From NCBI GenBank assembly GCA_965178125.1, contig OZ237752.1, positions 620,001 to 684,000 on the forward strand: DNA of 64,000 nucleotides, given 5' to 3'. Source of the DNA: Bilabrum cf. latius. Lineage: Eukaryota. A program made the translations under genes and the position numbers. Each line of letters starts with the position of its first letter. The first letter of the stretch is position 1. The notes below the pieces were generated by a model. It saw nothing but the letters and a program-made list of their open reading frames with translations, did not search any database and was not told the origin of the DNA. Shown here in pieces: positions 1 to 64,000 of this stretch.

Positions 1-1533
1 AGTTCTGCTGGCACTGCGTCCGAGCTGCATGCAGTTGCGCTGTCGACCGCGAGCGCGTCCAACGGCGCGTCTGCCTTGGCAGCTGCATCCCGAGCTGTTG
101 CCAATGGATTGCCAAGGCTGTAGGCACTGCCGCCTGACCAACAGTTCGCCAAGGTGGTCCGGTGCATTCCCGCGTCACATCCTTCCGGTGTGTCCACTTT
201 GCATCTGGAGCTACCCGCGTGTGTTGAGACGTCCAGCATCGAGTGCATCCTCAGCCGGCTGAGTGTGGTGATCGACAGCGTCAGGCAGGACGCCGCCGCG
301 GAGGGCATGCACCGTGGCGATGAGGTCGAGAATGGTGTGGCTGAGCCAGACACCAACATGACGGTCCTCTCTCTGGTGCCGAGAGACGAGCTCGCTAGCC
401 ATCGCGGCCCACCCCATGCGGCGCACGATGGGCTCGCGGGGGTGACTGGACAAGACTCTGGGGGTGATTCTGGGCCTTCTGACGGCCATATGGGGCCGGG
501 CGCTCACAGATCAAAGTAGAGTGGGCTGCAAGCCTGGAGGGGTATCGATCGAGCTGATGAGGATGTGGACGTGAGTCTGAGGCAGATGGGACGCAAGTCG
601 GCCCGTAGGACCATGAGATCAAGCGCCGCCGACGGCGAAAGTGCCCAGTGGTCCCGGAAGCCGCACGCTGCAAGTTCTAGTACGAACGGCCCGGGGATAG
701 GCTCTGACGCACACCCCAGTGATGGTGGCCCATCATCTCGGGCTGCGAAGAGGCCACGCCTGTAGGATGCTATGCTGCAGGGCAATGGCACTGGGTCTGT
801 CAATGAACAGCAGCAGTAGTTTGGTGGCATGGCACTCCTCTCTCAGGTGGCTTAGTCGCGACTAGGGGCGCGCAGTGAAGCTGTCCGAATGCCTGCAGCC
901 CGCAGTGCGGCGGCCTCGGCTGGGTCTTGGAATGAACGGACTGGGAATGGAGCGAGCACCGGAATGGACGGTGAGGGCGGCAGACAAGGCAGCACGGGTA
1001 CGTCTATGGCAGCCGGTGAGTCATTCGTCCAGGGGCTCAGTGGTCTTTCTTCGATGGGATCGCCCGTTGGGCCAGTACCTGGGTCCATGCCACTATAGCA
1101 GTATGCAATCGAGGGGAGCTCCATGTCGTCGCTGCCTTCTGCACCCAGTGCTGGCTCCAATGGGGGCGGTGGGTCTGTTGGCATGAGAAGGCATGTCGCA
1201 CGTTATGACGGTGCTAGTGCCAGTGCAAGTGCTTCTGGTGTGGATGGATCGGCTTCTTCGAATGCGGAGATCGCCAACGGACGCCGCACGGTGCGCTGGA
1301 AGCATGCACATGACACGGAGCAAGCTAGTGCTAGTGCTAGTGGCGGCACTTCTGATGCAGCTGGAGCGGGCCAAATATCGCAAGCAGGTATTGAACAGGA
1401 TGACGTTTTGCTCACCCTGGACACTTCGCACCCGGATGGACCGCGGTGGGTCCGCCTTGACGCGCTGGAAGGGGCTTCAGCCAAGGTTGTTGAGCAGGCA
1501 TCATTGCCCCAGGGGGATGCTCGGAATCAGTGA
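1..1533 (+). CDS. Hypothetical Ser/Gly/Ala-rich protein, 5'-partial (TAG=Gln)
   Basis: ORFs 154, 565, 889 and 1123 share one frame and are separated only by TAG (e.g. CAG CAG CAG TAG at 808-819). Open from base 1 to TGA 1531-1533. No recognisable domain. Confidence 0.7.
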
Positions 1534-1766
1534 GGAGCTGGTAGCTATAGACTGAGGTGATTGGGAGCATTAAAACTGCTAGTTGTCCAATGCACTACAA
1601 CATGATGACTACTGCACCATTGCTCATCACTTCCAGATGGGTGGAGGTGGGAAACCACCGCCACTCCGTGAAGTAAACATCAGACGACTAGAATGGCCAT
1701 CATGATGGGACACTCGTCACTGTAGCTCGCTAGTCTACCGTTTGGAATTTCGACATTTCAGCCATA

Positions 1767-2729
1767 ATGGCCCAAGAAACTGTCGAGGGCGACCCAGATA
1801 TTCTGATTGGCGCGGCAGCAAAAAGCGCGCCGTCATTGCGAGGGGCTTTTGAAGGCTTCTTAAAGCGTCGAAGAGATGCTGCCGAGTCCGACGCATCCGC
1901 TGCTCGTGGCAAAGCTGGGGCTAAAGTAAAACCATGGCAAAGAAAGCCAAAAGCAGGCGAATCTAAAGAAACAAAACCAAACAATGCTGTGAAAGGCCCA
2001 GTGCCAGCGACTGGTACCTCTGAAGCAGTCACTGTGGCGAAGCCAGCAATTTTAAATTCGTCAGAACTACGAGTCATGTTTCTTAGACAGGCCCTCAGGT
2101 ACGTTGGTGTAGGTTATAAGAAGAAATACTTCCATGAGGACGAGGAAGAATTTAAACAGCCCTTAAGTCTGGACTGCTGCGGGCTGGTACGCCGCACGAT
2201 GTGGGACATGGCAGAAGAGCTTGGCTACAGACTTGGCAGATGGAACTAGGCCTACATGTTTGATACCTTGATATCACACGAGGTATATTCAATCGGAGAG
2301 ATGCTTCCTGGGGACCTTGTGTTCTACTAGGGTACCTACACGAAGCCAGGAGCACGCCAGCAAAAGCATCGCATGGTGCACATCGAAATATTCTTGGGCG
2401 GGCCATCCGGCATGGCGACATTAGGCTCGCGGTGGCGCAGTGGGGTCGTGAGCATATTTCCCTCGATGCGGTTCTCGAGCACGAGCTGGAAAGACGTTAC
2501 GATCCGCCTGTGCCGCATCGAGCCGTGGCTGCGTGGCCTCTGCGTACCCGAGCACCCCACGCTCTGGGAGGGCAGCACCGCCAAGCGTGCGCGTGACAAG
2601 CGGTCCGTGTTCTTCAGCGGGTCGGGAAAGGGTGGGAGCGGGGCAGCGGCTGGTGGAGCCGATGGGGAGGATGAGGGCGAGCAGGATGAGGGCGAAGGCT
2701 CGGAGGGGCAGGACGGGGACCAAGGGTAA
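1767..2729 (+). CDS. NlpC/P60-like cysteine-peptidase-fold protein (~320 aa, TAG=Gln)
   Basis: Motifs ALRYVGVGY...LDCCGLVR...WN[TAG]AYMFDTL...PGDLVFY[TAG]G...MVHIEIFLG. ORFs 1767 and 2373 join through two TAGs and end at TAA. Confidence 0.8.
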
Positions 2730-2870
2730 CTCCGCCCGTGGGACTAGACCTAGTGCCAGCATGGCATCGCCCGGGTCGCTCGTGTATGCCTGGCTCACAC
2801 GCTGCAACATCCAGAGCAGCGACTCGGAGTTGGATCGCAGGTGAATCGATCAACCCTTGCCCACCTTGCA

Positions 2871-5800
2871 ATGGCAAGCTGGAAGCTGCTCGTGCCTGGC
2901 TTTCCTGATACTAGGTAGCCGCTAGGGAGGAGTGGGAGCACGACTAGTCGAGCAGAGCAAGAGGCAAATGCGTGTGCCGCAGCAGCGCAATCTGCGACAG
3001 CTGTTGTGACGGAGAACGCTGGGACGTCTCCTTCAAACTGCTTTGTGGTCAACGATGCCGCTTCCATTGCAAGAATGGCTTCACAAATAGCAGGCAGTGG
3101 CGAGACTGGGCAGGAAGGGCTCGTTTTGTAGCTAGTAGGACATCCGTCATCTAGCGATAGAATTCACGGTGTGCTTGTCGGAAAGGTGGGCCCAAATCTC
3201 GAATTGAGATCAACGTTTTTTGCATCTGGTCTATCAAAGGAGCAGCAAACACCGCGGAAAATGTGGGTTGATGCGTGCATGGCAGCTCTGGCGAGCTCTT
3301 CACATTCATTTAAGATAGCGTTTCATTGGCAGCCTCAGGCCTCTGCGATTATCGATGCCCTCGGTGGAGTCAAACATGACTCATGTATAAATGCTAATGT
3401 AGAAGATGCCCATCTCTTGTGCTGGGCGACAAATCCAGACGTGTGGGGCGCCTTGGGGCCTGACTGCTCGCTGCAGTCAGCACTATCCAGCATTCCGAGC
3501 AAAGTGCCCCAGTCAAGGTCTCGCGATGTAGACCCGAAATCAAATCCAGCTGCTCCTGCCTGGATTGCGGCTCAGCGGTACCTGCAAGGCATCATTTCCC
3601 TGTGGGGCGCGGCGAGGGCGAGGTGCCGGGCGAGGGCACTCCTCCCCTCGATGCGAGCCCTCCGGTTCAGCATTGCACCTTGGCTAGCGCAAACAGCGGC
3701 AAATGGAGTACCTGTTGACGCAGGCATGCTGAGGTGGGCGCTGCAACGGTCTCGCCAGGCTGCGGACGCGTGCGAGCGCGAGACCATCACGCTCGCTAGA
3801 CGCCTCGCCGCCTTGTCCCCCCGCGCGGCCACTGGGGCCACCCTGGCTTCCCTGCTGCAGCAGCTCTCCACGCCATCTGGGCTCGGCCGGTTTCTGTTCG
3901 AGCATTTAGGACTGCCCACTCCCTCGCACGCGTACCGCACGGAGTCCACCTCGGCGGCAGCGGCGGCCAGGCAGGCGATGACTGGCAGGCGACGACGGAC
4001 GGCAGGACAGTAGGACGGTCGCGCGGGGCCCGGCGGGAAGAAAGGAGCCGACAGTGGATGGGTGAGCACATCAAAATCAGTGCTACAGGATGTGGCGCGA
4101 TGCACGGCTGCCTGGTGCCGGCTGCCGCCAGATGCCATCGATGGATGGGTGCCGCATGGTGCTGGTGCTGGTGCTGGTGCTGGTGCTGGTGCTGGTGCTG
4201 GTGCTGGTGCTGGAGCTGCAGAATCAAATCCATAGCTGGACGCCAGCAACAACCAGATCATGTCTGAAGATGGCACTGGGTTTGACAAGGCACCAAGCCA
4301 ACAGGTTGTGCTGCCACCTGCGGGGGCAGTCATATCGCCCTTTCTGCCACGAATGCTCCGGCTCGTGGCACGGTCTCGCGCCCTGCGCAAACTGAGCGAA
4401 TCTGTTCTGCAGGCCATGGTGGACTCCCTCGACAAACGCAGGGCACTGGCATCCAGCAAAATTTCTAGGAATACCAAAGCAGATAGCGAGGCGATTGCCT
4501 GCGATTCGGGGCCTGCTGTGAACGGTAGTACAGCGGTTTCGGCGGCGAATGCACCCGCTGCTGCATCTGGAGCTGGTGGTGATCTCCCCACAGACGGGAT
4601 AATCGCGCCCATGGATGCAGCCACTGTCCCAGATGACTCTGCCATTGGCTCAGACTTAACCCCAGCGCCCGGCCGCATCATGGCTCGCCCCTGCCAGGTG
4701 TCCTCTGCCACAGGCAGGGTCGTGGTTACAGAGCCCTCAATGCAGGCACTGCCGGTGGCCAAGGGCACCCCAATTGAGCTGAAAGCCGCTCCACCGCTGG
4801 AGTCGGGTGCTACTGGTGTGGCCAGCGGCACTTAGGTAGGCAAGCTAGAGAGTGAAGCCCTGGACGGCGATCTGGGATACCTGTGGGAGTGCTGCAGGAA
4901 CGCCGTGCGACCGGTGCCGATTCGCACACGAACAGCCTCGGGTACTGAAGAAGGATCGTGCATCCGTCCATTGGACGGACCTTTAATCGGATCAGGCCCT
5001 GGCCCAGGTTGGCTCACTGTCTGTATCGACTACTCGCAGGTGGAGATGAGGATGCTGGCGCACCTGTGTGGCGATACGGTATTGCAGTCTGCATTCCGCA
5101 GCGAGAGCGGAGAGGATGTCTATGAAGAGATAGCTAGACTTGCCTTTCACATACCAAAGGAAGAGAAGGTGACCGTGGAGAAGCGGCGGTAGGCCAAGGC
5201 AGCTTCCTTGGGGGTGGTGTACGGGCTGGGGTCGCAGGCGCTGGCCAGCCAGCTCGGTGGCGACGTGGATGCCGCCCAAGACGTCAAGGAGAGGCTGCTC
5301 GTGGCTTTTCCCGGGGTCTTGTCTTGGCAGCAGAAGCTTCGCGATTTTGCAAGGGAGCATGGGTTCATCCCCACCGCGGGTGGGAGGCGGAGGGTGCTCG
5401 CAGCTGCCCAGGGTGGCGCCTCCCGACAGGCGCGAGCCTACGGATAGAGGCAAGCGGTGAACTCCATTGTGCAGGGCAGCGCGGCGGATCTCCTCTGCGC
5501 TGCTGTCGCTCTCGTACACGGTGTGCTGCTGCCAGCCGCAAACATTCTATCGAAACCGGCTTCGAAAGCAATAGGTGTGGGTGATGTCGAATAGCTATCT
5601 GCGTGCCTGGGGAACCACAGGGACGATCCTTTGCTCCATGTGGCAGTCCTGAGGATATGCAGGGCAGTGGTAGCCAAGCTCGCAGGCCTGGATCTGCCAA
5701 CCCTTGATGTTCTGGCACGATCCAGGCTCACCCTGTCTGTCCACGACGAGCTGGTCCTTGCCGTTCCGTGCGACTCGCCCGCCATAGAGAACAAAGGTGA

Positions 5801-6347
5801 GGGCAGGGCCGTTAGCTAGAGCGGGCAAGCGCTCGCGTCTCCTGCCAAGCAAGCCGCTGGAGCGATTGCTTGGGTGATGAAGGAGAGTGCGGCCTCGCTT
5901 GTGGCAGCCACGGGTCAAGCACACGTCAGGGGGCTCATGCGGCAGGCGCAGCTGGCTGGGTGGCTGAAGCTAGGGCAGGACCGCCGAGGGAGAAGTGCAG
6001 GCGGTCGGGCTGCAGAATCGAAGGAGGTCGAGCAACTTAGTTTTCCAACGGAAGATGAGTAGCGCAGGCTACAGCTGGTGAAGGTGCCTCTGCAGCACCT
6101 GCCAGCACCCTCGACAGAGACGCCGTGGGCAGGGGGTCAGTGGGTGTGGGCAGACGCAAGGCGGTGCGTACTGGCGAGGGATGCTGCGTCTCTCCTGGGA
6201 AGCAAGTAGAAAACGCAAGAGGCCGGTGCAGGCGCATCGGGGCACCCTGCAGACAGCGATACTTCAGAGCCGTCCTTGGCCGTGCCGTTCTCGTGCAAGG
6301 TCTCTGGAGGCCTGTCGTACGGCGAGCAGGAGTCTTGGCTGGATTGA
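2871..6347 (+). CDS. Family A DNA polymerase (Pol theta/nu-like polymerase domain, no helicase domain; ~1158 aa, TAG=Gln)
   Basis: TGRVVVTEPSMQALP; motif A IDYSQVEMRMLAHL; motif B RR[TAG]AKAASLGVVYG; RQAVNSIVQGSAAD; motif C LSVHDELVL; C-terminal LAVPFSCKVSGGLSYGE before TGA 6345. One frame throughout. Start ATG 2871 is tentative. Confidence 0.9.
4158..4211 (+). repeat. (GGTGCT)n hexamer repeat encoding (Gly-Ala)n inside the polymerase
   Basis: Directly visible tandem hexamer, in frame with the polymerase ORF. Confidence 0.9.
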
Positions 6348-6479
6348 TTGCGTCCAGAGCAATTACATTCCATTTGAGTCCCGTGCCAAAACGCTCCAAC
6401 CGCGTGTCATGTTAGGTCAACAATACCAACAAACACCGATTCCACTCCCCTCCCCCCCTTTGCCCGACTCTGTGCTAAG

Positions 6480-8993
6480 TCAGTTCGCCAGCGGGTTCTC
6501 CTCGCCTCCAATGAACCTGGCAAGCACGAGTGCCACTGTCCCGATTACAGAAAAGACTCTGAAGACAAAACCCGGCGTTACTGGCGTGCCAAAGATGGTA
6601 ACCGCGTCCATCATATCAGACGACTACAGCAACGAAGCCACCCTGCTTTCATTCCGTCTCACGGTCCACTCCAGCGCACTGCCATGCGGGGCCCGCATGA
6701 CCGCCAGCATCGCTGCTTTCATGCCTCTTGATACACCAGCAGGCAGCAGCAGCATAAGGCAAGCCACGATCTCAAACATTACCCCAAATACGAACACCTA
6801 TGCCGCTACACCCGAGTCTAGACCCACTGCGACCACCGCGAAGCTGACCCCCACCAGCACAAGCAGCCCAGCACAAGCGCCATAAAGCGCACCAACGGCA
6901 TGCGAGTAGAACGCCACGCATCGGCGAAGCTCGCCCTGCCGATCCAAAGCCAGCTCAAACGCAGTCTGCGCGAGCCACGGCGGGAGCTGCCCTTGCGAAA
7001 TAGCGCCAGGTTGAGTGCTTGCTTTCGGCTGCGCACCAGCAGGTGACTGTACCGCCTCCTGGGAGGAATTTGGTGGTGAATGCCGACGACGAAGACCTGT
7101 TTGATCCGCATCTTGGTCGGGCACCTGGCTCTGCACCAACTCAGCCTGTTCAAACTCATCTGACACGTCGTGAGCAGGGGCGCGCAGAGCAGCCAGCAGC
7201 TCGACCAAGCCTCTTTGCCTGGAGGTGGCCGCCAGCATGAACGAGAAAGACACGTAGACCCAGTATATTCCAAAGATGAGCGAGCTGGCTGGAGCAAAAA
7301 ACAGCACAGTCACGAGCAGCCCGTCTGCCCCCACGCCACCGCTTGTGGCTTGCGATACCAGGTCCATCCCAACTGGAATCGCAAACAACACAAGAAGTAC
7401 AGCCGCAAAAATTTCTCCGGATGAAGATATCGCTTCAGGCGGGAGCATATCCAGACAGTATAACCCGGTGCGCAGCACTGGCTTTGCCCACTCTCGCGCC
7501 GAGGGCACTGCATGCAGACCACACCTTGTCGGCTCCCTTCGGCTTTCGTGTCGGCCCGCGGCTTTCCAGTTAGCATTTTGCATCAGACATGACATGGCTC
7601 CCACAAATGGACCGACAGCCAGGTGGTCTTGCAGTGCGCTGTCACGTGGCTCCACAAAGGCCTCGGGGGGCAGCGTGCCGCACGCCGTGCCGGTGTCGCC
7701 GCCTGTCGACAGCGGCTCATCTCCCGCACGCCGCTCGTTCTAAGACGCGTCAGTGCTCAACTGTATCGGCATACTGTGACCCGTAGGGGGCAATTCAGTC
7801 GCTCCAGGGGTGGACATCGATGCGCTGTGCCGACCGGTCACCGGGTCTGACTTGCTCTGCCGCGGCGATACACGGTTTCCTGTGTTGGATCCTCGGGCAT
7901 CGAAGCAAGCACAAGAAAGGCAGCTAGCAAGACAACTGCAACATCCAGCTGCGGGATCTGGTTCCGGTGCCAGCCTCGCGTGCCACTCTGCGCGCTTGCA
8001 TTGCACGTATTGACGGAACGGGTCCGCGGTGGCCTGCTGCCGCCGAGTCTCGTGGCCGGCACTGGTCTGTGTGCAAGCCACCGCGGATGCTGGCGCTGTC
8101 GATCTGCGCAATGGTTGCAGTTGTACCTGGACATCTCCACCGGGAGATTCATTGGCGTCTGTCGGTGCTGCAGTCGGGGGTTGATCTGATTCGACTTGCA
8201 CTGTGGCTACTGGGATGGAAGCGCTGCTGGCAGCGGCTGACGCTGGAATGTACGGCAATGTACTACTGGACGATACTGGCTGGTCTGCTTGCCTACAAGG
8301 TGCCGTGTTGGCATCATTGGCGCTATGAAAATTTCCAATGGAGCCAAAGCGAATGGCTCGGCTGCTGCTTGCCTGCTTCCACAGGGGTCTGTCGCGTATT
8401 GCCGGCCTTGCCTGCCGGCCGCACCCGCACATGTCGCTGAAGGGTTCCCTCGGCAGCACGGAATGTCGATCACCAGTCGACCACTCCCAGCTACCCAAAA
8501 AGGGTGCATCTGGGACCCCACCGCCACCTACTGCGACCACAGGACCCAGCGCGACGGTCGACACCGTGAACGTCATCACAATGGCAGTTGGGAGCGCAAT
8601 CCAAACGCATGCAATGAAGAACCATCGCAAGTCCCATGTTGGAACGAAACCATCCAGTTCTGTGGCTTCAAATCCAGCTGCTCGTCTCGCGGCAGGAAAC
8701 GTGATAATGAATTGAACTGTGCATACGAGCAGCATCCCGACTTGCCAGCATGGCTACCAGCAGGCCAGACAACCACACCCATTGTTGGATGACGTAGGAC
8801 AAACCGATCCAAACGATGGCGGATGGGATATTTCACATAAATCACTCGAACGCTGCGGAACGTGAACTGTGGGACCGCCAGATCCTATCTGATCGCCACG
8901 AAGGATGGGGTAGGTCACTCCCATATACTGTGAGAATAGATGAAACCGAGAGCTTTCCAATCGCGCTAGATATTTCTTGATCGGATCAGCCAT
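6480..8993 (-). CDS. Seven-TM membrane protein, candidate gustatory-receptor-like (7TMIC/GRL, DUF3537-like) ion channel (~837 aa, TAG=Gln)
   Basis: ORFs 8754-9074, 7740-8735 and 6798-7655 share a frame, are joined by TAGs and continue to TGA 6480. Seven hydrophobic segments. C-terminal AVTIFGTPVTPGFVFRVFSVIGTVALVLARFI resembles the TM7a/TM7b pattern. The ORF is solid; the family is inferred. Confidence 0.65.
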
Positions 8994-9140
8994 TTTATAC
9001 TTCAGTCGGTGAGGTAGGAGGGTTGCAAGGCGTTGGCCTCGAGGCCCTCGCCCAGAACGAAGCAACGGAAGCACGAGGAACGTTCGCTATCAGCGTCGCG
9101 GTTCACTGACTTTTATTGCTCGTTATCACAAGCAATTGGA

Positions 9141-12100
9141 ATGAAATGCCAAGTTAGAGGCACAGGATTTGTTGCATAGTAGCTAGTTGGTGTGCTTGCT
9201 CGACACTTGCATGCAGCTAGGCCAGTTCGTCGCACTGGTCGACACTGGCGTCGCGGCAGGCCGAGACCTCTGACTGTCCCGTCTTTAGGATGGAATCAAT
9301 GGCATAACGGGTGCACCTGTCGGTAGAATAGATTTTAGCGTAGTATTTCATAGCAGAGCATCGGAGGCCTGCCGCAAAAGCGACAGTCATCCACGACGAC
9401 ATCTGTGCTTAGAGACGCCGCAGAGCTGTCAATTATTTTGCGGTCTGATCGATCGCAATAGTAGCGCTTGTTCGAACGGTAGCTAAGTAACCAAGAGAGA
9501 GATGATGCAGCCCTGGAGTTGTCCGAAGCTTTGCACAAATTGGATGCGAAGGCCAAGTTGTTGTCGTTGGAAGAGCTCAGCGTAGCTGCTGAGATCGCAG
9601 GAACATCCGGCATCTGGAGGTCAGGATCGCAGATGAGCGCCGCAGGCATCCTAGGTACCATTGTATCGGAGACACGGCTGCGGTGGGAGTGCGATGGCCC
9701 TGTCACCACAGAGCCAAGCCAGCCTGGGGGAGGCGAGCACGATCGGGAGACTCCAGTCGACGTTGCCAGCGCAAGCGCACGAGATCCGGAATCAATGTCC
9801 CGGTGGCCGACCGCAGCCGCTCACACTGAGAGCATCGTCCGATTCAGCAGGGCAGCCGGGGCTGCCATGCTGCACGCCGCCCTGCAGGCTCGACTCAGCC
9901 GGTCAGCAGCCAGCGACCCTGACTCTAGTGCACCGGACGTAGCCCCTCCACCAGAGGAGGCCGAGTGGCTGGCAGCGTTTGCTGCAAGTGGAATTGCCGC
10001 AGCAGCGCGCAATATTCCTGAGGCTCGTCTAGCGAAGTATCCTGACGAAATTGGTCGTTAGGCGGCATCTGCGGGGCATGCTGGCACCGCTGATCTGCGG
10101 GCGGTCGCTGCAGCTCTGCAGGCACTAAGCCCCTAGCGCATTCTAGCAGGGGCGTGCGATGGAAGCGTTGCTTCAGTGGTTGATGATGACGCGGGCTCGG
10201 TGGTTGAGGTTCTTCACAGGGATAGATAGGAATTGCTGAGCGTGCTGAACCGCTGGATCGGCCCGTTCTATGTGGGTGCGGCCCGTGCCGTAGCGAGCGG
10301 GCTCGGTCGGCTGAGATCGAAGGCAACAGTGTACACATACATGACAGCTATCGGGCGGGGTCACTCCAGAGAGGCAAATGATTTGAAAGGTGGGCTGGGC
10401 GATGGGATGAGCCCGCGCATGCATCTGTTGGCCGGCAGAGAGGCAGAGCCCTCGAAGGTAGGCACGGTGGAGGGGGTGCAGCTAGCTGCAGACTTGGGCA
10501 AATGCATGCTGGAGGCAAGAAAACTCGTATCTGAAGTGGACCTCCCGCGCCCCTCCCCGCGTCTGGTAACGCGAACGGGGCCGTTCTCGCCTTGGGCAAG
10601 CCTGAGCCGCATAGTGCGCTGGTCTCTGCGCGCTGGAGCCAGCTCGGAGATTGCGCAACGGGGCGGGCACGTGCTGGCCTTACCACTCGCAGAGGTGATT
10701 CTGACCCTTAGAGCCGCAGCTGCTGCCACAGCATAGGCAGATCTTGCACCTAGCGGGCCATAGACTGATGTCATTCATTGGCCTGCAGATCCAGAGCTCC
10801 AGCTGCTGGCCTTGCCAGCGATCATTGGCTCGAATGCCCCACCGGATGACGATGTGGCTCACCCCCCTGGCGTGCTGACTCGGGCCATAGGAGCGATGAC
10901 CTCGTGGATAGGCAGCCAGCTCGGCGTGAGGGCCTTCAGCATCAGCCCTCGGGCGGTGACTGCCCCTCGTCTGTACGCCGCCATCCACGTGTGGCCCTCT
11001 AGCCAGCGCGACCGAGTCGGCACCGAATCTAAATCTGAACCAGGAAACCTCACATCTGTGCGCGCGCCCCCTCCGCGCCAGCGACAGGACGCAATGCAGC
11101 TGCTCCTGGACCTGACCGAGGAATCGGCGTCAAAACTCGTCCGAGAGTGGGCGGCATCGGCAGACAGCTTGAATACCTCTCGAGATGACAGCACGCTGTG
11201 CATGCTGCGTCCACCAGAGCATGGAATCGTGACCGAAAACCATTTTGGTTCGTCTGTTGAAGAGGAGGGGGCCAGTGATAGCACAAGTGCCCCGATTCCA
11301 TTCTGGGACCTAGGGCCGTTGGACAAATCCGGCGGTTCCGGTGCGCCACAGGTTGAAGCGGTGAAAGCAACCAAACCAGATCCAGCTGACACGGAAAGCA
11401 CGAACACTGAAGAGCATAGCAAGACCATTGCAAAGCCAAAGTGGCTCGAATAGATCGGTCCCTTGGGCGGAGCATTGGCTGGGGACGATGGGTTGTCTTC
11501 ACAAGGCGCCGATGACGGCGCGTGGGAGGAGGCTGATCCTCGTGGTGACCTCGCAGCTTCCGTGCTTAGCGCGGCCAGCGAAATTATCCCGTCTGACCTT
11601 GCCGCTGCTCTGCTGGGATGCAGGCGCGATGACGAGAGCCTCGTCGGGGTCTCGCCTGTCTATAGCGCCACGGACATCAGGGCAGCGATCGACACTCTGT
11701 CATAGGAAGAGGACAAAGCGCCTTTGGAAGACGCAGTTCAAGAGCCTGTGACTCGAGTCAAGGTGCGCATCGGTCCCACTGGCGATGAACCAAATAGCGA
11801 CAGCTGCTCCCAGCAAGGTCAAGGCCATAGCTCGCACCCGGATGCTCGCCTGCAAGACGTCAAGATCAGGGGGCCTTTCGCTATTCTGAGGCGATTCAGA
11901 AGCGGCCTTGGCGCGGGAGTAGACAGCTAGGAAGGAGAGTAGTGGGTGCTGCAGTGGTCAACGCCAGGCACTGGCAGCGAGGGCGCCCTGGCCCACCAGC
12001 GGGAGGGTCGCATGCCGTGGGAGGCCGAGTTCGATTTCGAGTGGAGCGCGCCGGAAGACTCGAACAGAGCAGAGCCGAAGCATCCAGCCCACGTTAGAAG

Positions 12101-14438: not shown

Positions 14439-14816
14439 TTGGCGCAGGTTGTTGTGCATTTCTTTTGGCACTAAAGGGTAGGGTGGCCGCACTTGAAAGG
14501 GACTGTTCGTCGGACTCTGGTTTGCATTGGTGCAACCTATCCACGTGGTATTATCAGGTGGACTCTCGACCGTCTCGGTAAATGCAGGTTAATAATCCAT
14601 AATCACTCCACAATTTTTGATCATATCGTCCTTTACGGGCTCCACAGGCGCTCCAGAGTATCTGGTTTATCATAGCTGTTGCGCGCTTTTTCCCAGCTAT
14701 AAAAAAGTGAACTCGCGACACAGCTCCACTTCACTCCCTATCGACCTCAATATCGACATCCAAGCAGCGAATATCGGGACAATCGATAGAAATACCTTCA
14801 GTACCCCTCGCATTCA

Positions 14817-37108: not shown

Positions 37109-37250
37109 AAATTTGAACTCTATGCTGGTATTATGGCCACATGATGTACATGCTGACGTCTTCACAACGAGAATCTGGAAAAAGAATCCAGGCGAGTTCC
37201 TGGCTTGCGGCGCCGCGCCACAGAACGAACCGTAAGTTCCGCTCAAGATG

Positions 37251-40725: not shown

Positions 40726-40742
40726 TAGCAGTCTCGCCACTT

Positions 40743-42230: not shown

Positions 42231-42247
42231 TAGCAGTCTCGCCACTT

Positions 42248-49794: not shown

Positions 49795-49834
<40 letters not shown>

Positions 49835-50344: not shown

Positions 50345-50542
50345 CTGCCCGCGCTTGAACGCCGTGTGAGTTGCGTAGAATAATGCCAGTGGCAACTGTA
50401 CTTTTGCAGCAACTTTCCGAGGTCTTTAAAATAGGGGGGAAAGCTTGACCAGCGGTCGGCTTTTGAGGTAGCGAGTACTTTTGTGCAATAATCACACAAG
50501 TAGGGGTTGAGTCTGGGATGCACTTGTCGGCCCCTAGTCAGC

Positions 50543-53500: not shown

Positions 53501-53583
53501 CAGGCTTGCAGGCTCAGGGTGACCTCACTGGTAGCAGCAGCGGTGGCGCGTAGGGGGCCTCGGGGCAGCCGGGGGGCACGTAA
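50543..53583 (+). CDS. Long coiled-coil protein (exons 50543-50758, 50878-51152, 51246-53583; TAG=Gln)
   Basis: E/Q/A/R/K-rich heptads. Introns GTGAGT...CGCAG (119 nt) and GTGAGG...CGCAG (93 nt) are phase-compatible. Many TAGs in Q-rich context; ends at TAA 53581. Confidence 0.8.
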
Positions 53584-53912
53584 TCTGTATTGCTGTGATT
53601 TGGTTGGTTTAAGTATCCTAAAAATACGCAATGACCTTCTGGACTGGGGCATGAACACCGTCTGAACGGAACCTCGTGCTGCGCGGCGCCTTGCATGGAT
53701 CGGTGACGTACCGAGTTTAAGACGGCTCTGCGGCGTGTCAATATCGCCTTATCAAACAAGGATCCAAGTCCGTTGGCACCTTTCGTACTATTTGATTAGT
53801 TTGGGTTCTTTGCTACTGCATAGCATTAAAGCTACGACTGCGCTCACAGCGGTGTGAAGTCACTGTTCTAGGTACATTTTCAGCCTTTGATTCGAAATCT
53901 GGCGGGACTGCG

Positions 53913-56900
53913 ATGGATAGTCCCAGTGCAGATGGTCTACCCCCACCACTTTCGTTGGATGAAGGGATCCCAGCCGGTGGACTTGCTGCTGGGGCGAGTT
54001 TCTCACTGGACGATGGTCGCTCGGAGATGCCATCAGGAGCCTTGTCTCCACTAAATGGTGCTGGATCACGCCTGTCACAGGCACAATCATCCTTAGTACT
54101 ATCAGATAATGACCTGGGTGTGGCGTTGCCTGCGCTTCTTCGACGAGCGGTCGTAGCGGGGATACCTGCTGCTCACGGTCCAGGACACCGCATGCTTGCC
54201 GGGCCCCCGTAGATTGCGCTCGGCGAAGCCGCAGCATCAGCAGCTAGGCTACTGCCACCTATACCACTACCAGAGGCAGCCCCGGGGATGCTTCAGCGCG
54301 ATCAAAACGCTTTGCAAAACGCGATCGACGCAATCCAAGCGTCTGGACAACGCACGAGAAGGATCGAATCCGCGCTCTCTGCTCCAGTGCTACGGACCAT
54401 GTCATTAATTTTCAGTCAAACGGAGCAATGCCTAGATGGTGGCACGGCAGAGCTTCCGGCAGCTGCCAGGACTGCGATACAGTCAGCTGAAACTGTGGAT
54501 GAGGCAGTGAAAACCCGCCCCATCAGCTCTGAGGCGGTCAATGAAGCAATCACTGGCCTCGCTGAGCACATCAAACTACTTTGCGATTCGCAAAGCGCTG
54601 TGCAAGAACATACGGGCGGTGCTGCCGAGCCTTTGGCAGCCCCCGCTGCTGATGGGTTGGGCAGAGCCACGGATGCCTTATGGCAGTGCGGTGCTGCGTG
54701 CGCCAGGACGCTTTCCCAGCTCCTGGAAGGATCCGAGCTGATTAAGGTTGAGACCAATGGCGCAGATGATGCTCCCGCTGGAGTCTCGCTATCCGGTGAC
54801 GCCGTCATCCTGGCTGGCATCCGGCAGTGCCTCGGCCTGTGCTTGCGAGGGCTGCGCGGGGCTCTCAGGGGTCCTGCCGGCGAAAGGGCTGGAGATCTAT
54901 CGCCTCGCGATTCTACGGTGCTGAAGCTGCGGCAAGACGCGCGAGTTGCTCTTCTGTAGGGGCTCGTGGAAGTCCTCAGTGCTGGCGAGGAGCAGCCCGG
55001 CCACGACGGAGAGGGAGAGGGAGAGGGGGAGGGGGGTCGTCGCGATGAGGCAGAGACAAAGCACGAGGCTGCGGTGATCGCGCTGCAGGCCAATTGGACC
55101 CCTGGCTGTGTGTTGCGGAGTGCTTCCGTCCAGCCATGTGCCGCAGATGCCGAGGTGGCAGCGCTGGCACTCGCTGCTGGAGTGCCTGCGGCTGCAGCCG
55201 GGCCGATCCAGTCCGCTGTCTCCGACCCCGGATTGGCCGTGGGACCCTTCTGGTTCGGCACTGTGGGGTCTGCGGCAGGTGTTGGTCCTGACCAGGTCTC
55301 AATCTATGTGGATCTGATGCATGGCGCCAGTTCCGCATGCGTCGGCGTGGCGCCGGCCTCACCTGGCCTTTCCTCGACGGGAAGCGCGGGGGGGCCAGGA
55401 CATGGTGCCTTTGGAACGGCCGCCAAATCATATGCAGCAGAACCAAGCGCGGGATCACTCGATGGGACCCAGCGAGATGCCCTGCTTCTGCTGGACCGCT
55501 GGGGACTCTCCCTCGTGGAGCGAAGCGGTGCGCCTGCTGGAGATGGCGGCGGCCCTGCTGTGGCGCGTGACAGGCTCCTGGCGAGGATCCCGCTCGGCAG
55601 CCTTCCAGGGCATATTGGAGAGCAAGCGAGGTCTGGACGCTGCGCTCTGGTGTCAACGGGTTCATATGTCAGCAGATCGCGAGGGGGGCGCGCATCACTC
55701 GCAGGAGACCCGTGCGTGGTGTCGTGGGAGCCAGAGGAGGACGGGGGCGAATCGAGGGGTAATACCCATGACGACGATTCAGAAATGCTCCATGTCACGC
55801 CTATGAAGACATGGCTGAGGCAGTCACGAAGGAACCTGTCCCCTGCCTCTCGTCGGCTCCTCGGCCGCATGTAGGCGGACGGCCGCGGGCAGGTGCAGCC
55901 AGACGATAACGAGGATCGCCCAGGATCCGCTCTGCTGCACCAGGCCAGGCAAGCGGCGCATACGGCCGTCTCCTCAGAGATGTCCGACGACACCGCGCAC
56001 TCTGCAGAGGAGGCGGCATGTGCCAGAGGCATGCAGATTCCCTTGCCTGCGTGTTCCGTCCTGTTGGCCATCGCCTGCGATCAGCACGATGGTGATTCTG
56101 CCTCTGGGGTTAGTCAAACGGGTTTCGTGACGATTACTAGGGAGCCCGTAGCCCTGTCTGGTGCTGGGGACACAGGCAAATCACTTGCGCCCATTGGGTG
56201 GAGGGTGGTGCTTCGTCGGTTTGTTCCAGCTGCCAGCGACGGCGCTAGTGCTGGTGACGGCGCGCACGGCGGCAACACTCAGCGGGATTCATTGCAGTGC
56301 GTCGCAGCCGGTGTCATTCCGATCAGCTGGGACTCAGCTGGTTAGATCCCACCGTCTGGGCTTGTCACTGAGTCCCAGGAGGGGTGTTTCGGAGCTGCGT
56401 CCCGCTCGCTACGATTGCCTTGGGGCTGGGATGGTCACGGGGCAGGACGCACCCACATGGAAGGAATGCCCTCTCCGCGACTACTGAGGGTGGGCGTCGC
56501 AGCTTGGCCCGCGCTAGGTCTGGTGTCAGGGCTGCTTCCCATTGCGGATTACTCCGCAGCCGGAGGTGAGAGCAGGGGATGCGATGCAGCGCACCTCGCC
56601 ATTCTAGTGCCTGGCAACGATCAACAGGGTGGCAGCGACAAGCACATGCGGCCTGGTGCCCCGTCAGTTGTGAGTATGCATGCAAAGTTTGACGGAACTT
56701 TGGTCAGCATCAGCTCCAATGCAGGCGCTTCTTCGCAAGGTATCAGACCGGTGGGTGCGCATCTCGTTGCAGCCGGAGAAGCCGCGGTTGGGTCCTGCGT
56801 TGGATTCCGCTCGATGGCCGTTGAAACGCCACCGATGCACGCGAGGATGCTACGCCCCCCGCGGCGTCAAGCCGAGGACGACACCAAGGCGGGTGGTGAA

Positions 56901-59900
56901 TCAACTGTTGCCAGCTCTGGCATGACCGTACAGGAAGCCGGCATGCTTGTCAGCGCTCAGTTTGTCAAAGGCACAGAATAGCTTAGGTCGCTCCTGTCCG
57001 GGCCAGCATCTCCGGCTCCAGCGCAGGAGGAGCAGCATGACAAGCCCGCTGGTGGCTCTGACGGGACCCATCAAGAGCCAGCAACCGTGACATTGGAAGC
57101 AATCACTGCGTCAGCGCAGCAGGCCAGCAAGCTCCCGGCGGAGCCATCAACTGGTGGGATCTCGAGCGAGTGGTCTGTGCATCTCACCACAGGACCAGTG
57201 GGTGGCGGTGCTGTGACCGCACCGGAAGCGCAGGCGGTGGCCCGGTCGGCTGCGCTGCTTCCGCTCGGAGTGACACGACTACAAGACAGAAGTGGTAGCG
57301 GTAGCCCAAAGCTCGCCAGGCTGGTCGCCGTGTATGGAGCAGGTGTGAGGCCCACATCGGACCTGCGACTGGCTGCTGGAACCTGCGCCCATCGCCCCTT
57401 CGTGTCCACTCTTGGAAGCGACCCGGGAGCGCGCAGGTCTTTGCACGCCCAGGCACCACAAGGAAATGACGCTGGTGCTAGTCTGGAGCTCGATCCGAGC
57501 AGCCGCAGGACGGCAGACCCGCCCGGTTCATCCTCCAGCTGGTGTTGGCACGCGCTCGAACTGCCGGTTGGGAACAGGTTCCAAACCAAGCCTGGTTCTG
57601 GTTCTGCGTCGGTTAGGCTAGCAGCAGAAGGCCTGCAGCTGATTCAAAGGGCTTCACACACTGTGGTGCACGAGCATGGCGACACCGCCTCCATGGATCC
57701 AGTTGCCGTGTCCTGGATCAAAGCAACTGCGACCATGGAGCGCTCTGTAGCGCCAGCAGAAACACTACTGCTGACCAGAGACGGTGCAACGATCAGGCCA
57801 AGATTGTGCAGGGGCTCTTTGGCCATCATGGCCGAGCATGCACTCAAGGGAAGTGCGGTGAGCGCCGTGCTTCGTACATGTCACGAACGGTGGCTGGCCG
57901 CGATTGCCGCTCAGGGAGCCATGTACGGCAGCAATCTTGACAGTGCTGGACGGTTGTCCCTCCTGCGATCGCTGTGGGAACCGTCATTTGAGGGTGTGAT
58001 GACTCCGGTGTGCGACCTCCCAGTGCGCCAATCACCCGCAACTGACGCGAGGAATCTTGCCAGGGCCCATGCCGCCGCCAGGCTGTACCCAGTTGCCACC
58101 CTGGGTGATTGGATGCTGGTGGCATGGCCACAATCGGACGAAGTCGCCGGCCGCGTGCGGGTGATGGAGCCCACCGGTGGCGTTAGGCGAGAAGCTGTCA
58201 TGCAGCAGCTACTTGAAGAGGTTGTGGCTGAGTCAGGTGGTCAGACAAATCCTTCCGTAGCACCTGCTACCACCCTGCTGCAAGGTGTGGAAATAGAAGG
58301 TGCCGATCAGAGATAGGGGCTGCTGGCACCCGTGCCGCTGGGCCTGTCAAATTAGTATGACGCAGAGGCTTCGTTTGCCACCAGCTTAGTATCTGCCGTG
58401 TGTACGGAATCAGAGCATGGTATCACCGCAGACTCGGCCGGGGCAAACCATGGTGGAAGTCTGGCGCATTCACGGGCAGCCTCCGCTTCTAGCGAAGAGG
58501 ACGACCCCATAGCAGGAATTGGTATGCGCTGTCGAGCTGAGTTTGTGCGCATGGGCTGGATCAGGCAGCGGAGCGTGTACTCTGGCGCGGTCTCCGTCGT
58601 GCCCTACTCGCTTGCTGCTGCGAGGTGCAACGCCCTGGTGCGAGCCCTGGCTGACCAGTACATCCTGGAGACTGCGGGCCTCGGGTCTGGAGACTCGAGC
58701 GCGAGCTCGGGTGCTGACGCAGACGCCATGGAACAAGAAGAGGCGGGTCGGTCGGCAAAGCCTAACGCCTCTTCTCGTAGAAGAAGCAAGTCAGGGTCTC
58801 CGCGAAGGAACAAGAGGCGGCGGCACAAGGAGCTGGACGGCCACATCGACCGCCACATGCAAGGGCACGCTGGTGCCCTGGCACGAGCCGCTGCAGCCGC
58901 TGCTAGAATTGTAACGGGAACGAGACCTGGAGCTGTTTTCGGCCGCACAGCGCAGGCGGCAGCCAGGGAGCAGGCAAGGCGGATGGGCTTCGTCCTGAAG
59001 CGGCCTCAAGCGCCCTACAGGAGCCGGCGCGGCACTGCGGGTGCTAGCTTGCGCGCAGAACCTGCGCCTTCCGTGTCTGCTCTGCAGCGAATGCCTTCGC
59101 ATGGTGACAGCACAGGTGCTGCTAGCCCATAGCACCCGCTGCTGCCTACTCCAGTCCGTATCGCACGAAGTCGTAGCTTTGACGGCGGTCGAGGCGGAAG
59201 CCCCAGGTAGCATAGATCGGTCAAGAATGCCCCGCCGTTGGAGTTGCTCGAACCGCAAGTTCCGGAGCAATTTGCCGGCCCAAGCATCGCTTTACTTGGC
59301 TGCAGGCTTTCTGTTATGTGGGCTATGAACAACTGGTACACTGGCACGTGCATGTTTGTTGAGAGCCCCGAGCCGGATGGGCGCATCTACGTCAAGTATG
59401 ACGACGGTGACGAACGCTTCTATAGGCCCAGAGACAAGACTTTTGTGGTCCTGGCTACACCTCCGCCGGCACAGTCAGGAGACTGCGCGGGAGACGAGGG
59501 GTCAGTGCTGACTGCATCCGCCTACCCGAGCCACCGGCTTAGGAAGAGCTTGCTGTCTACGCTGCCCAGCGCTGCGCTCGACATGCTGGCAGCGGGGGCT
59601 GTAGGGGCACAGGATGCTGCAAGCCACGCGCCATCGCTAGCTTTGAGCTCTGCTCCGTAGTAGCCAGCTTTCTTAATGACGGGAGGCGCAGAGCAGCCCG
59701 GTGCGTCGCTGCAGCTGTCGGAGCTTGATATCACGGGCCTGCATGCCATGGTAGCGTCTGCAGCAAGTGGCGGCGGAGACGTGTTGCGAGCGCTCAGCCA
59801 GCTCCAGGGTCAGAACCCGGAAGTCAGCGAAACCATCGCGACGACCCTCGAGCTGAAGCGCACAGCTGCATCCAATGTGCTGTCGAGCCGATCCATCGCG

Positions 59901-62900
59901 GATGAAATCGATGCGTGCAATGACGCCGATAGCGTGAAGGCCTGCTTGCGGCACTGCCTTTCCCTGCTATGGATTGCGGCAGACAGGATGCGAGCCTTGG
60001 TACGGTATGGCCTAGCTAACGCCGATTCCCACACAGTGGTTCTGCTCGGTCATGAGGCCAGCTCATGCAGGCGCAGCTTGATGCAGCTAGTTGCACTCGC
60101 CGGCAAGCTCGATTCGCCGCCAAGTGCCGCAACACAAGCTGCAGAACGAATATCAGATGCGACTATGGCATTCGTGGACGCGGCTATTTCGTCGTCAAAC
60201 GGCGCAAGCACTGGCCTGCACCTGGTGGAAACCGCCGGCGTTCCCTAGGACCAGCAAGTCTCACTGCTGCACGTGCTCGAAGAGTGCATGCAGGAAGCTT
60301 CCATGGGTTTCACGAGTCTCAAGTCAGATTCCGAGGCTGCCGTTTCAAAGGATGGCACTGATGGAGATGCGCCTGCTGCGCTCGACAACACCAGCGTCAG
60401 CCCGAATGCGCCGCTATCCTTTGCCAGGGCCTCGCGCACCAATGTATCCGGCGGCTTGCTACAGTATGCCCAATCGGCTGTCCGTGATGGCGATGTCCTG
60501 CTGCAGGCCAGACGGTTCGCAGACGCCCTTCTCTAGTCAGACCCAAGCGGTAGTATAATCGAGAATGTCAGAATGGTGGGTGCAACTGCAGCCGTGTGGG
60601 CCAGCGCTGCAAGGCTCCGCCCCACTCATGCTGACCCCATCGGGGCCGTCTCCCGCCGTGAATACCGCCGGATGAGCCAGTGGGCATGGGCGGTTCTTGT
60701 CCGTATCATTGTTTGTGGGGCAGATGAGCACGTTGAGAAGGCTGCCAGGAGCGCTGTACGGGCGCTGCTAATTCATCCGAGCGCTGCTAGCGTGCTAGTT
60801 GAGAGCCCATCCCGCCTCATGGTTGAGCTCTTGCGGGGATTGGGTTCGCAGCTGAAGGCATGCCATAGTAGCCTGCGTGCTGCAGCTACGAATCATGATC
60901 CTGACAGTGTGGACGTGGGGCTCACGGTTGGGCTTGTGCTTATGCGGGTGGCCCCAAGATCTCAGGCGCTTCACGAGGGTGCGCTACTGCCTGCTCAAGC
61001 TGCCACGCGGCCAAACTAGCCCGACGCTCCCCTTGGAGGGCTCGCCCTATGTATGTTTCTTGCGTGCGGATTCGAAGTCGCCAAGTCGCAGTTCGGCGCA
61101 GCAGTTGCAGCTGCTGCCAAGCAGCAGTGGAAATCTTCTGGTGCTCCGACGCCAGCCAAGGTCGCCAAGGCGCTTGACAAGTTCACGAAGGTTCGTAGCA
61201 GGCACATGGCACGGTCTGTGGCCGATTTGTACGCGTCTCTGAAGCTGGCTGCATTGGTATCTGGCTTGATATCATCGCCCACCACGCGCGCCGTTCTGGG
61301 ACTGAATGATTGCCTGCTTAGGTCTGGCTGGATAAAACCCACGGCGGTGGCTGCCCCTCCCTTAGGTGAGGATGAGGGCAAGACAGCCATTCAACCCAAA
61401 GAAGCGCTAAAGAACGAGTGGTCTGCCTGTGCGTCTGCAACGGACGCGTCGCTGCCGTTCTGTCTGGCTGCTCGGGAGATTATCGTCGGTGTGGCCGCAC
61501 AAGCCGGCTCCGGCATACGGGCGGACTCCAGCGGAGCTGAGGCCGACGCACAGCTGCGTCAGGTTGCTTCCCATAGCCTTATTTACGGTGGTAGTGGTGT
61601 TCCTGCCCTGCCCTCTGTTTCGAAGCTTGGTGCACCGCACTGGTGCGATGCTACGATGACACGGGCTGCTGCAGCTGCCAAGCGTGGCCTGTCGTCCGCT
61701 GCAGGGATGGCAAGAGTATTGGGTCTCCCCCCTGTCCTCGTGTCCCTTGCTATCAAGAGCTTGCTTGAAAATGAGGACGAGCAGGCATCACCAGCGAAAC
61801 TGATGGAGTCAGTCTCGGCGCATTTCGTGTGCAGTGGGGCAGTTGCAGCCATCAAGCAGGCAGTCGAGCTGCACGTCAACGGCATTGAAACGTTGGTAGC
61901 TGACGACGTTGATGATGATGAATTGGTCGCAAAGCAGATGAAGATGTCATCGGCAGCGGGGTCAGTACGAGCTTAGCGAAGCTGGCGCCGGGAGAGTGGG
62001 GCTGCCAGTCTACACGGCGAGGGTAAAGAGGACGAGGACGGACTGGCCACCGATGGTTCTCAAACCGCTGGTATTCTGGGATCGGGTGGTACCGCAGCCC
62101 ATGGCGAACTGCACGGCGTGACAGGTTCCCCGAGCATGGAGTCGGAAGCTGCCGGTGTCGGTGAGAGCAAGACTGGAGACGGCGATACAGACTAGGGTGG
62201 CCTCAGCAGCGCATCTGCAGCTGCTGCTGTTGCCCTCGTGGATGCGGTGCAAGATTCTGCTGCAGACGCTTCAACCCCCAGATAGGGGAGCGCTGCAGCT
62301 GCTGCCATGCAGTTCTTGCCTGGCTGCCAACAAGATAGATCCATGGCAGAGCAGGCTGCGGTGGCGCTTGCGATCGGAAGGTCTGGAGCGATGTCGGGGG
62401 GCCCTGGGCTCGAGGACTGGGCGCTATCGGTCGAACTACAGGCTGGCCACAACACTGGGACAAGCAGTGGCGTTTTCCCCACCTCGGAATAGTCAGTGAC
62501 AGACGCATGCAGGGACTGCCTAATGGCTTGCCTTCCTGGTGCGGATGCGAGATCGCCGTCCAGTAGAAGCTGTGTGCCTGCTGTGTTGGCTGTCTGCGGC
62601 CCAACTATTGCCCCCCTTCTCACCGATGCATCCGTCTGCGAAAGAATTATCGGCGCTGCTACAGCCGCAGTATCGCATGACTGTGGTGGTGAAACCGGCA
62701 GCGCGGTCGCCTCCAGCGGCACTCTTGCCCTTGTACAAGCCGCCCTCCAGGCGATTACGTCCGCGGTTAGTCCTATCAACACGGGTGCGCCTGTTCAGTA
62801 GAAGGCCGTAGTATTCGCCAATGCACTTGCAATTGCGCTCGGGAGTGCTGTCCTTGCTGCCAACGGTGATGACTCTAGCACGGCTTCCGCATTGGCAGCA

Positions 62901-64000
62901 ATACCCATGAGCGGGTCGACAGGCATGATCGTGGCCGTGGACGAGGAAGGCACAAACGGACATACCAGCACCGCAAAGTATTTTGCCTTGGCACTAGAGA
63001 TTACAACATGCATTCTTGCCAGCGCGATTCGCAGTGACCCATCAGATGGCGCGGTGTCAGGATTCCCGGCAGTTCCATTGTGCGCCATTGTATGCGCGTC
63101 TGCCGTTGCTTCTTGGCCGAGTGGCAGCGCTCGACACCATACTGCTGCCAGAGTATGTATCTCGGGCTGCAACTCGTTGCGGCGGGCTGGCCTTGCGACC
63201 GCTGTAGGCAAATGCTGCCCTGGTATGGCTTCACAGGCAGCGCTGGCGCTGCTTTCAACTGTTTTGCGGGACGGCTGCAGCGATCTGATGCGCAGCGGAT
63301 CAGCCAGCGAGCTGCTAGTTGGGACTGCGATTGAGCTCCTCAGGGGTATCGCATCCGCACAAGACTTCTTCCCAGTTTCATCTGAAGTTGATCCTGCTGT
63401 CCTGCGTGCGAAGTGGTACACTGCAGCTGTTGATACCCTTACTGCGCTGCCTTCACTGGACAAGGGAGAGCACGAGGCGGTTGTCCATGCGCGCACCCTC
63501 GCAGAACTGGTCCAAACGGCTCCTAAAAGTGCGCCTGAAAGTGCTTCAGCTGCGAAGGCAGCGGCATTCATGGTGTTGTTGAGCCTCTCGGGCGACTCTA
63601 CCCTAGAGCACCTGGGTTGGAAGCTAGCATCTGGAGCGCTTGGAAGCACCGTGTCACCTGCCGCCGTTCAGGTCGGCGCGAGCGCACGGGCAACTCTACG
63701 CCTGGATGGAACGCCAAGCCATCCGCTTGCATCAGCATCCCCAGAGCTGATGGAGGAGCTGCAATCGGCCGTAGCTCGCGCCGTTTCCATGGCCGAGTCG
63801 AGTGCCCGGGCCTCTGTGAATGCCCTCACGGAGGGTTCGGACAGCTCCGATGACGACGAGGACGAGCACGATACAACTGGCAGGTACTCTGCAAGAAATT
63901 CGGTGAGACGCTCGAGCTCAGCTGCGCTGATTACCAAGCTATCTGGTTCCCGTGGCTGGTAGGACAGCTCGAAGCTTCCTGGCGCAGCGAGCGTCTTGGC
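53913..64000 (+). CDS. Giant Ala/Gly/Ser-rich protein (>3360 aa, 3'-partial) with a Tudor-like domain (TAG=Gln)
   Basis: Fifteen listed ORFs share one frame and end only in TAG. Tudor-like LLGCRLSVMWAMNNWYTG...IYVKYDDGDERFY at ~59292-59423. Confidence 0.8.

Follow-up and report, generated by a model that had tools for sequence, protein, structure and literature searches.

Nuclear genomes seldom depart from the standard genetic code, and even more seldom in a way that gives UAG and UAA different meanings. Both codons together (UAR) are read as glutamine, the type of code listed as NCBI table 6, in many ciliates, hexamitid diplomonads, some ulvophytes, oxymonads and Amoeboaphelidium protococcarum. 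Reassignment of UAG alone to glutamine, the mapping of NCBI table 15, is described for Iotanema spirale, Protocruzia tuzeti and two phyllopharyngean lineages (PMC11687900, PMC5304391). Iotanema is an anaerobic gut flagellate from the Fornicata that is known from its transcriptome (Panek et al. 2017, PMC5304391). Other splits between UAG and UAA in the literature consulted are UAG as leucine in a rhizarian and in one ciliate clade, UAG as serine in Scotinosphaera, and one ciliate in which UAG is glutamate and UAA is lysine. We analysed a stretch of 64,000 nucleotides (contig OZ237752.1, positions 620,001 to 684,000 of the forward strand), which as a whole is referred to here as the window, and in whose genes UAG is translated, most probably as glutamine, with UAA and UGA as stops. 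The window is probably a further case of the UAG-only glutamine code, and it matches no described organism for which data were found.

Under the standard code the longest stop-to-stop frame in the window is 809 amino acids. With TAG taken as a sense codon, stop-to-stop frames of 3401, 1944, 1944, 1834 and 1205 codons open up, and the longest TAG-open frame across 100 shuffles of the window was 709 codons. The frame of 3401 codons spans positions 53796-63998 and continues past the end of the window, so that the statement in the initial annotation that frames of up to 10 kb are broken only by TAG holds. Eleven plus-strand gene models, trimmed to plausible starts and amounting to 12,636 codons in total, contain 86 in-frame TAG codons, no TAA and no TGA; the remaining two frames of the same DNA (25,272 codons) contain 207 TAG, 60 TAA and 491 TGA. 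The frequency of TAG is similar in frame (0.68%) and out of frame (0.82%), and TAA and TGA are wholly excluded in frame. For the largest gene (53913-63998), the log10 probability of encountering neither TAA nor TGA at the off-frame rate is -31.4. UAG accounts for roughly 15% of the putative glutamine codons in the window (93 TAG versus 539 CAG plus CAA), and the composition of the window is about 60% GC. A total of 121 TAGs over 15 stop-to-stop frames includes a duplicated gene as well as about 11 TAGs at 8934-9480 that are probably 5' of a true start; the stretch 8934-9530 looks non-coding, being without the pattern of higher GC at the first than at the second codon position (GC1 > GC2) that characterizes the window genes. 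One further TAG, at 32826, is located in a frame of 178 amino acids whose coding status is not established.

These frames resemble those expected under the UAR = Gln codes in that a stop codon has been captured for glutamine, presumably by a mutated tRNA-Gln. The two differ in the fate of TAA, which is also a glutamine codon in the UAR = Gln codes, whereas in the window none of the 12,636 in-frame codons is TAA and two genes end in it. The table 6 code was rejected for the window because TAA never occurs in frame. Amoeboaphelidium was likewise excluded, its genomes being about 40% GC (PMC10608142) and its UAA and UAG both being reported as glutamine codons. The gene content (a polymerase, TmcB-like proteins, a WD40 protein and others) is that of a eukaryotic nucleus, and the window comes from the nuclear genome of a gene-dense, intron-poor eukaryote rich in GC.

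The TAG codons are present in independently assembled DNA and fall inside conserved protein domains. All six TAGs named in the initial annotation (817, 2247, 5190, 5445, 32826 and 49682) lie in the contexts described there, among them KRR-TAG-AKAAS at 5190, RWN-TAG-AYMF at 2247, CAG CAG CAG TAG at 817 and CAG CAG CAG TAG CAA CAA at 32826. Contigs from four public runs belonging to three studies were aligned on positions 1-16000, and the TAG sites in the covered part are free of differences in the contigs of all four runs. A contig of the third study that covers 5048-5450, and so spans two TAGs of a family-A DNA polymerase gene (5190 and 5445), contains no other letters at these positions. For 1-15,000 the listed differences amount to four isolated single bases, all away from the TAGs, and a further cluster at 15,306-15,969 was traced to a diverged copy of a repeat. 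Base-calling error, which the initial annotation had named as a possible source of the TAGs, is therefore contradicted by the agreement of contigs from three studies. Two runs that were guessed to be RNA show the TAGs unchanged; their RNA nature is not on record.

Within the polymerase, the PolA profile aligned in a single frame over residues 607-978 and crossed four TAGs between the catalytic motifs. These TAGs (4833, 5190, 5445 and 5592) fall between the motifs DYSQVEMR, RRxAK, RQAVNSIVQGSAADL and VHDELV, and TAG must therefore be translated. The NlpC/P60 domain encoded upstream of the polymerase is crossed by two TAGs, at 2247 and 2328.

UAA and UGA remain terminators, UGA in most cases. 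The ends of 13 frames, a small sample, comprise 11 TGA and 2 TAA. When TAA was read as sense too, no large frame was lengthened, except that the NlpC/P60 and polymerase genes, which are unrelated, were fused across the TAA between them. A relative of 770 residues of the TmcB-like protein described below ends one residue from the position of the TGA stop of the window protein.

The meaning of UAG was approached mainly through relatives of the TmcB-like protein encoded at 16687-22425 on the plus strand. The C-terminal 1033 residues of this protein, used as the query of an exhaustive HMMER search, returned 42 relatives, many of which are fragments of 41-290 residues with 48-77% identity, and a word search returned two more fragments, from the N-terminal part, with 74-79% identity. 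Two sets of these fragments are 71-78% identical to each other, and we read them as probably representing two related organisms, or paralogues in relatives, in which the gene is cut by in-frame stops like those of the window. The codon after the last residue of a fragment is its stop, and the opposite residue of the window protein shows what that stop replaces. Among 16 fragments that aligned to their ends, the window residue facing the stop is Gln in seven, Ser in two, Thr in two, and Glu, Asn, His, Lys and Val in one each. With cluster members and the two N-terminal fragments included, each column counted once and an identity of at least 45% required, 13 columns are obtained, in which the residues are five Gln, two Glu, two Ser, two Thr, one Asn and one His. 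The Gln codons that face stops of relatives are CAG at 19531, 19585, 20098 and 21061 and CAA at 22372. At the 4.2% Gln background of this protein the probability of at least five Gln in 13 columns is 1.3e-4, and as a control Gln immediately precedes the start of a fragment in 1 of 14 cases. In the reverse direction, TAG 19966 of the window stands opposite Gln in a relative with 71% identity. Within the window itself, a family of small genes has the conserved block NPNCAAAV-x-HWLS, in which the TAG at 40905-40907 of one copy stands opposite CAG in three paralogues. Summed over 22 columns, the BLOSUM62 log-likelihood is highest for Gln (-75.0 bits), followed by Glu (-84.1), Lys (-90.9), Arg (-92.7) and Ser (-93.3). 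The evidence for glutamine rests on a small sample of columns, and by this comparison of homologous sequences UAG most probably encodes glutamine.

Several observations weigh against this assignment. The main weakness is that only protein sequences of the relatives are available, so that their fragment stops were assumed to be TAG. Several of the TmcB-like fragments are collinear and, to judge from the equal recorded lengths of their contigs, apparently share single metagenome contigs of 17,680 and 14,144 bases. TAG 19957 stands opposite Arg in a relative, and in one column the stop of a relative faces Glu in both the window protein and another relative. Among the window paralogues, the TAGs at 40842-40844 and at 39339-39341 (in the copy at 39240-39827) are opposite AAG in two paralogues, and three window TAGs in all are opposite Lys or Ser. 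The likelihood of the residues neighbouring TAGs gave no signal, a multinomial test of residue counts per gene was flat across genes, and TAG adjoins QQ in only 2 of 93 cases, which is not significant. Within 20-50 residues of TAG, Gln showed nominally the strongest enrichment.

Domain profiles bear on the alternative that TAG is a sense codon for glutamate, or for another polar residue such as lysine. UAG is read as glutamate in some ciliates, and UAR as glutamate in Blastocrithidia. In the column of TAG 5445 of the window (AYG-TAG-RQAVNS), 115 of 120 family-A polymerases have Glu and two have Gln, a difficulty that the initial annotation had already pointed out. This single column does not overturn glutamine, because in Iotanema only 41% of the well-conserved columns under UAG are dominated by Gln, with 44% under the canonical Gln codons (PMC5304391). 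The column of TAG 5190 (RR-x-AK) contains 59 Arg, 18 Lys, 15 Ala and nine Gln; Glu is absent from the eight residues listed there, and both nearest homologues have Gln. A profile built from the 120 homologues scored the polymerase at 206.7 bits with TAG read as Glu, 205.5 as Gln, 204.9 as Lys and 200.7 as Leu, and the NlpC/P60 Pfam profile, for which the curated cut-off is 23 bits, gave 24.5 bits for Gln, 24.0 for Lys, 23.8 for Arg, 23.2 for Glu, 23.0 for Ser and 20.0 for Leu, Gln being 1.3 bits better than Glu. Summed over both profiles, the scores are 230.0 (Gln), 229.9 (Glu), 228.9 (Lys) and 220.7 (Leu) bits, so that with only four TAGs lying within domain profiles the scores by themselves do not separate Gln from Glu; on these scores the hydrophobic readings are excluded. 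The surroundings of TAG are polar, with a mean hydropathy of -0.416. This value is closer to the mean for Glu (-0.417) than to the mean for Gln (-0.294), the gap being within 1.1 standard errors, and it lies 2.5 standard errors from the value for Leu (-0.13). Leucine is disfavoured by these polar surroundings as well as by scores that are 4.5 bits (NlpC/P60) and 4.8 bits (PolA) below those of Gln. What separates the polar readings is the comparison with relatives and paralogues, in which stops face Gln in five of the 13 columns versus Glu in two (one of the latter in two homologues), Glu and Lys fall about 9 and 16 bits below Gln, respectively, in the likelihood over 22 columns, and one TAG is opposite CAG in three paralogues inside a conserved block, although window TAGs are opposite Lys at two places. 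We consider glutamate or lysine very unlikely on balance, and glutamine the preferred assignment.

Two other explanations concern the function of the codon and not its meaning. That UAG also terminates some genes is quite unlikely. The frames were delimited by TAA and TGA and are hence blind to any true UAG terminator, which such frames would hide behind a short random extension, and in four genes the last TAG is 10-46 codons before the TGA or TAA, where about 45-60 codons would be expected by chance. On the other side, the tail of the polymerase after its last TAG aligned to the right end of the family profile, with a score no better than that of shuffles, and a UBA_4 match of 19.3 bits, under the cut-off of 21.8, lies 3' of the last TAG in the gene at 48566-50344. 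[quoted passage not shown] That the TAGs are not translated at all, whether they are mistakes of sequencing or assembly, mutations that arose in genes already dead, or sites removed by editing or splicing of the mRNA, is extremely improbable. In its favour, no run on record as RNA contains the stretch, and nonsense codons commonly arise by C-to-T change at CAG, which could alone mimic the match between stops and Gln. Errors are countered by the independent assemblies of three studies that agree at the TAG sites, and dead genes by 12,636 codons free of TGA, TAA and frameshifts, when about 275 such stops would be expected from the off-frame rate. Introns would not all be in frame and without other stops, and the relatives retain 71-79% protein identity across their own stops.

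UAG as an ordinary sense codon, most probably for glutamine, with termination mostly at UGA and otherwise at UAA, is therefore the explanation that we hold with considerable confidence. It is the reading proposed in the initial annotation, and it is supported by the frame statistics, by the TAGs between the polymerase motifs and by the comparative evidence for glutamine. By analogy with other eukaryotes in which UAG or UAR is reassigned, UAG would be decoded by a tRNA-Gln with the anticodon CUA, one base from the CUG isoacceptor, and eRF1 would be without recognition of UAG, its recognition of UAA and UGA being kept. ARAGORN detected no tRNA genes within the window, and an eRF1 gene was not met among the domain-search results for the window genes. 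The fragmented TmcB-like proteins suggest that the trait is also present in at least two environmental organisms related to this one.

When compared with the described UAG-only codes, the window agrees in mapping and differs in how genes end. Iotanema has the same mapping, in which UAG is a fairly rare glutamine codon spread through genes and UAA is not reassigned (PMC5304391). Of its transcripts, 104 of 119 end in UAA and 15 in UGA (PMC5304391), whereas in the window, at about 60% GC, TGA ends 11 of 13 frames and TAA two. Hartmannula sinica, Trochilia petrani and P. tuzeti also have this mapping, with UAG reassigned independently of UAA (McGowan et al. 2024, PMC11687900). In phyllopharyngean ciliates 86.9-98.3% of genes end in UAA and the GC content is 27.4-53.6% (PMC11687900), whereas the window has mostly TGA and 60% GC; the window also differs from them in that it apparently contains GT-AG introns of 93 and 119 nucleotides. 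In exLh (UAG = Leu) and Scotinosphaera (UAG = Ser), as in the window, the reassignment is confined to UAG, and both UAA and UGA serve as stops. exLh ends 56 of 71 genes in UAA (PMC5304391), unlike the mostly TGA-ended genes of the window, and its leucine reading falls about 9 bits below Gln on two domain profiles of the window. The serine reading of Scotinosphaera (PMC11687900) falls 18 bits below Gln over the 22 window columns. Iotanema, exLh and the phyllopharyngean ciliates were accordingly judged unlikely as sources, UAA being their main stop and the GC content of the ciliates being lower.

The initial annotation had likened the genome to bicosoecid stramenopiles such as Cafeteria. Among the relatives of the window proteins a single one is named, a TmcB/TmcC protein of Cafeteria roenbergensis with 30% identity. 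The Cafeteria genome is 70% GC, and the standard nuclear code was used in its annotation. When the N-terminus of the TmcB-like protein was looked up with a language model, the Atlas neighbour clusters returned were labelled mainly Ciliophora. The two frame-consistent candidate GT-AG introns and the high GC content would argue against a ciliate. Literature searches for a UAG-only glutamine code in a GC-rich protist, a stramenopile or a bicosoecid found no report, subscription journals and supplements being outside their coverage; as the runs are from 2025, a published or pending description is conceivable. We tentatively suggest, as a possibility to which we give somewhat less than even weight, that the window comes from a non-ciliate lineage, GC-rich, UGA-terminating and possibly of heterotrophic stramenopiles, in which UAG alone was independently reassigned to glutamine, a change so far undescribed, and that this reassignment is clade-wide and extends to at least two environmental relatives.

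If this is true, it would be the first UAG-only reassignment in a genome whose genes end mainly in UGA and not in UAA. Wherever figures are reported, namely in exLh, Iotanema and the phyllopharyngean ciliates, most genes terminate at UAA (PMC5304391, PMC11687900). The reassignment would also be awkward for explanations that link UAG loss with AT pressure and termination predominantly at UAA, and the capture of UAG in a genome of 60% GC whose genes mostly end in UGA would widen the known conditions for UAG reassignment. The organism would supply a new natural eRF1 able to tell UAG apart from UAA and UGA, a property of interest for genetic-code engineering. Standard gene callers cut the proteins of this organism and its relatives into fragments, as public protein collections show, and these genes are therefore mis-annotated in metagenome resources.

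The remaining features of the window are as follows, in order of position. The 3' part of a gene with no Pfam family lies at 1-1533 on the plus strand, with its 5' end beyond the window; it contains six in-frame TAGs, including 817, and ends in TGA. It is followed by a 60-base intergenic element at 1636-1695, which recurs in many other contigs of these runs: its summed depth is 261 compared with 19 in the flanks, and eight contigs aligned to it with 6-7 mismatches. Probably it represents either a short dispersed repeat or an intergenic signal that is shared. The NlpC/P60-like protein gene (1767-2729, plus strand; Pfam PF00877) carries the TAGs 2247 and 2328 inside the domain and ends in TAA; a PDB search with its product gave no match. 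The family-A DNA polymerase gene (2841-6347, plus strand; Pfam PF00476, 1.3e-50) is without a helicase part, contains 11 in-frame TAGs and ends in TGA. Its product aligned in the PDB to Taq, Klenow and Pol theta. A word-based protein search with the polymerase returned no close relatives, the best identity being 37%, and a scan of metagenome contigs returned only six unrelated loci at 29% identity. A repeat of the GC-dinucleotide type at 4151-4228 within this gene encodes (Gly-Ala)n, and the contigs of all runs break there. A gene on the minus strand at 6480-9074, encoding a multi-pass membrane-like protein with no family assigned, has four in-frame TAGs and ends in TGA. The large plus-strand gene at 9534-14438 (at least 1634 codons, with an open frame from 8934) has no Pfam or PDB match, contains 15 in-frame TAGs and ends in TGA.

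The TmcB-like gene at 16687-22425 encodes TPR_TmcB and PAS domains followed by a membrane part, contains 10 in-frame TAGs and ends in TGA. A second copy at 26089-31827, also on the plus strand, arose by tandem duplication with an offset of 9402 bases and has its TAGs at the same 10 places. The duplicated segments, 15981-22605 and 25383-32007, are 6.6 kb in length and 98.97% identical, with 68 mismatches and no gaps, and 24 of the 50 codon differences in the TmcB segment are synonymous. Because their TAGs are at identical places, these recent tandem copies are uninformative on the meaning of TAG. Scans of genome and viral contig collections with the TmcB-like protein gave no match, a degenerate-motif scan of the genome contig collection gave 37 chance matches of which none was related by tblastn, and a word-based search returned one distant relative.

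A reverse-transcriptase frame at 33684-36020 on the plus strand (frame region 33507-36020; RVT_1, 1.2e-9) belongs to a retroelement, contains three in-frame TAGs and ends in TGA, so that the element is either adapted to the code of its host or decaying only at TAG. A family of small genes is present in five copies, all on the minus strand, at 24220-24801, 36536-37246, 39240-39827, 40743-41330 and 42248-42829. The encoded proteins of 193-236 amino acids have no Pfam match and share the conserved blocks YAGKVKRELVQY, NPNCAAAV and C-x-DCGGSFP, and the genes are embedded in repeats of 1.5-3.1 kb with 67-97% identity.

Downstream of these repeats the plus strand carries five further genes. A GH20 (hexosaminidase D-like) gene at 43359-45806 has a single TAG, at codon 6, and ends in TGA. 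A WD40 protein gene at 45989-48298, with ERCC8/CSA as the best PDB match of its product, has five in-frame TAGs and ends in TGA. The gene at 48566-50344, which has the weak C-terminal UBA-like match discussed above, contains six in-frame TAGs, including 49682 after CAG CAG, and ends in TGA. A coiled-coil protein gene at 50507-53583 has seven in-frame TAGs in its main exon and ends in TAA. Two candidate GT-AG introns, at 50759-50877 (119 nucleotides) and 51153-51245 (93 nucleotides), both of the form GTGAG...CGCAG, are predicted 5' of the coiled-coil frame; with both removed, three coding-looking exons would join in frame, and the middle one would add four TAGs. The very large gene at 53913-63998, with no family assigned, comprises at least 3362 codons with 20 in-frame TAGs and is open at the window end. 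PDB searches with both giant proteins of the window gave no match.

An Rfam scan of the window gave no match, and long tandem repeats were not found in it. The intergenic spacers are 110-900 bases in length and have 46-64% GC, mostly below the approximately 60% of the genes. Nearly all of the confident genes are on the plus strand and the GC skew is positive almost throughout the window, which suggests a long array of genes on the same strand. Two small paralogous genes at 23177-23965 and 38205-38984 are identical over their first 630 bases and sharply diverged in a patch of 40 bases near the 3' end, where one copy has TAG TAG and the other AAG TCG.

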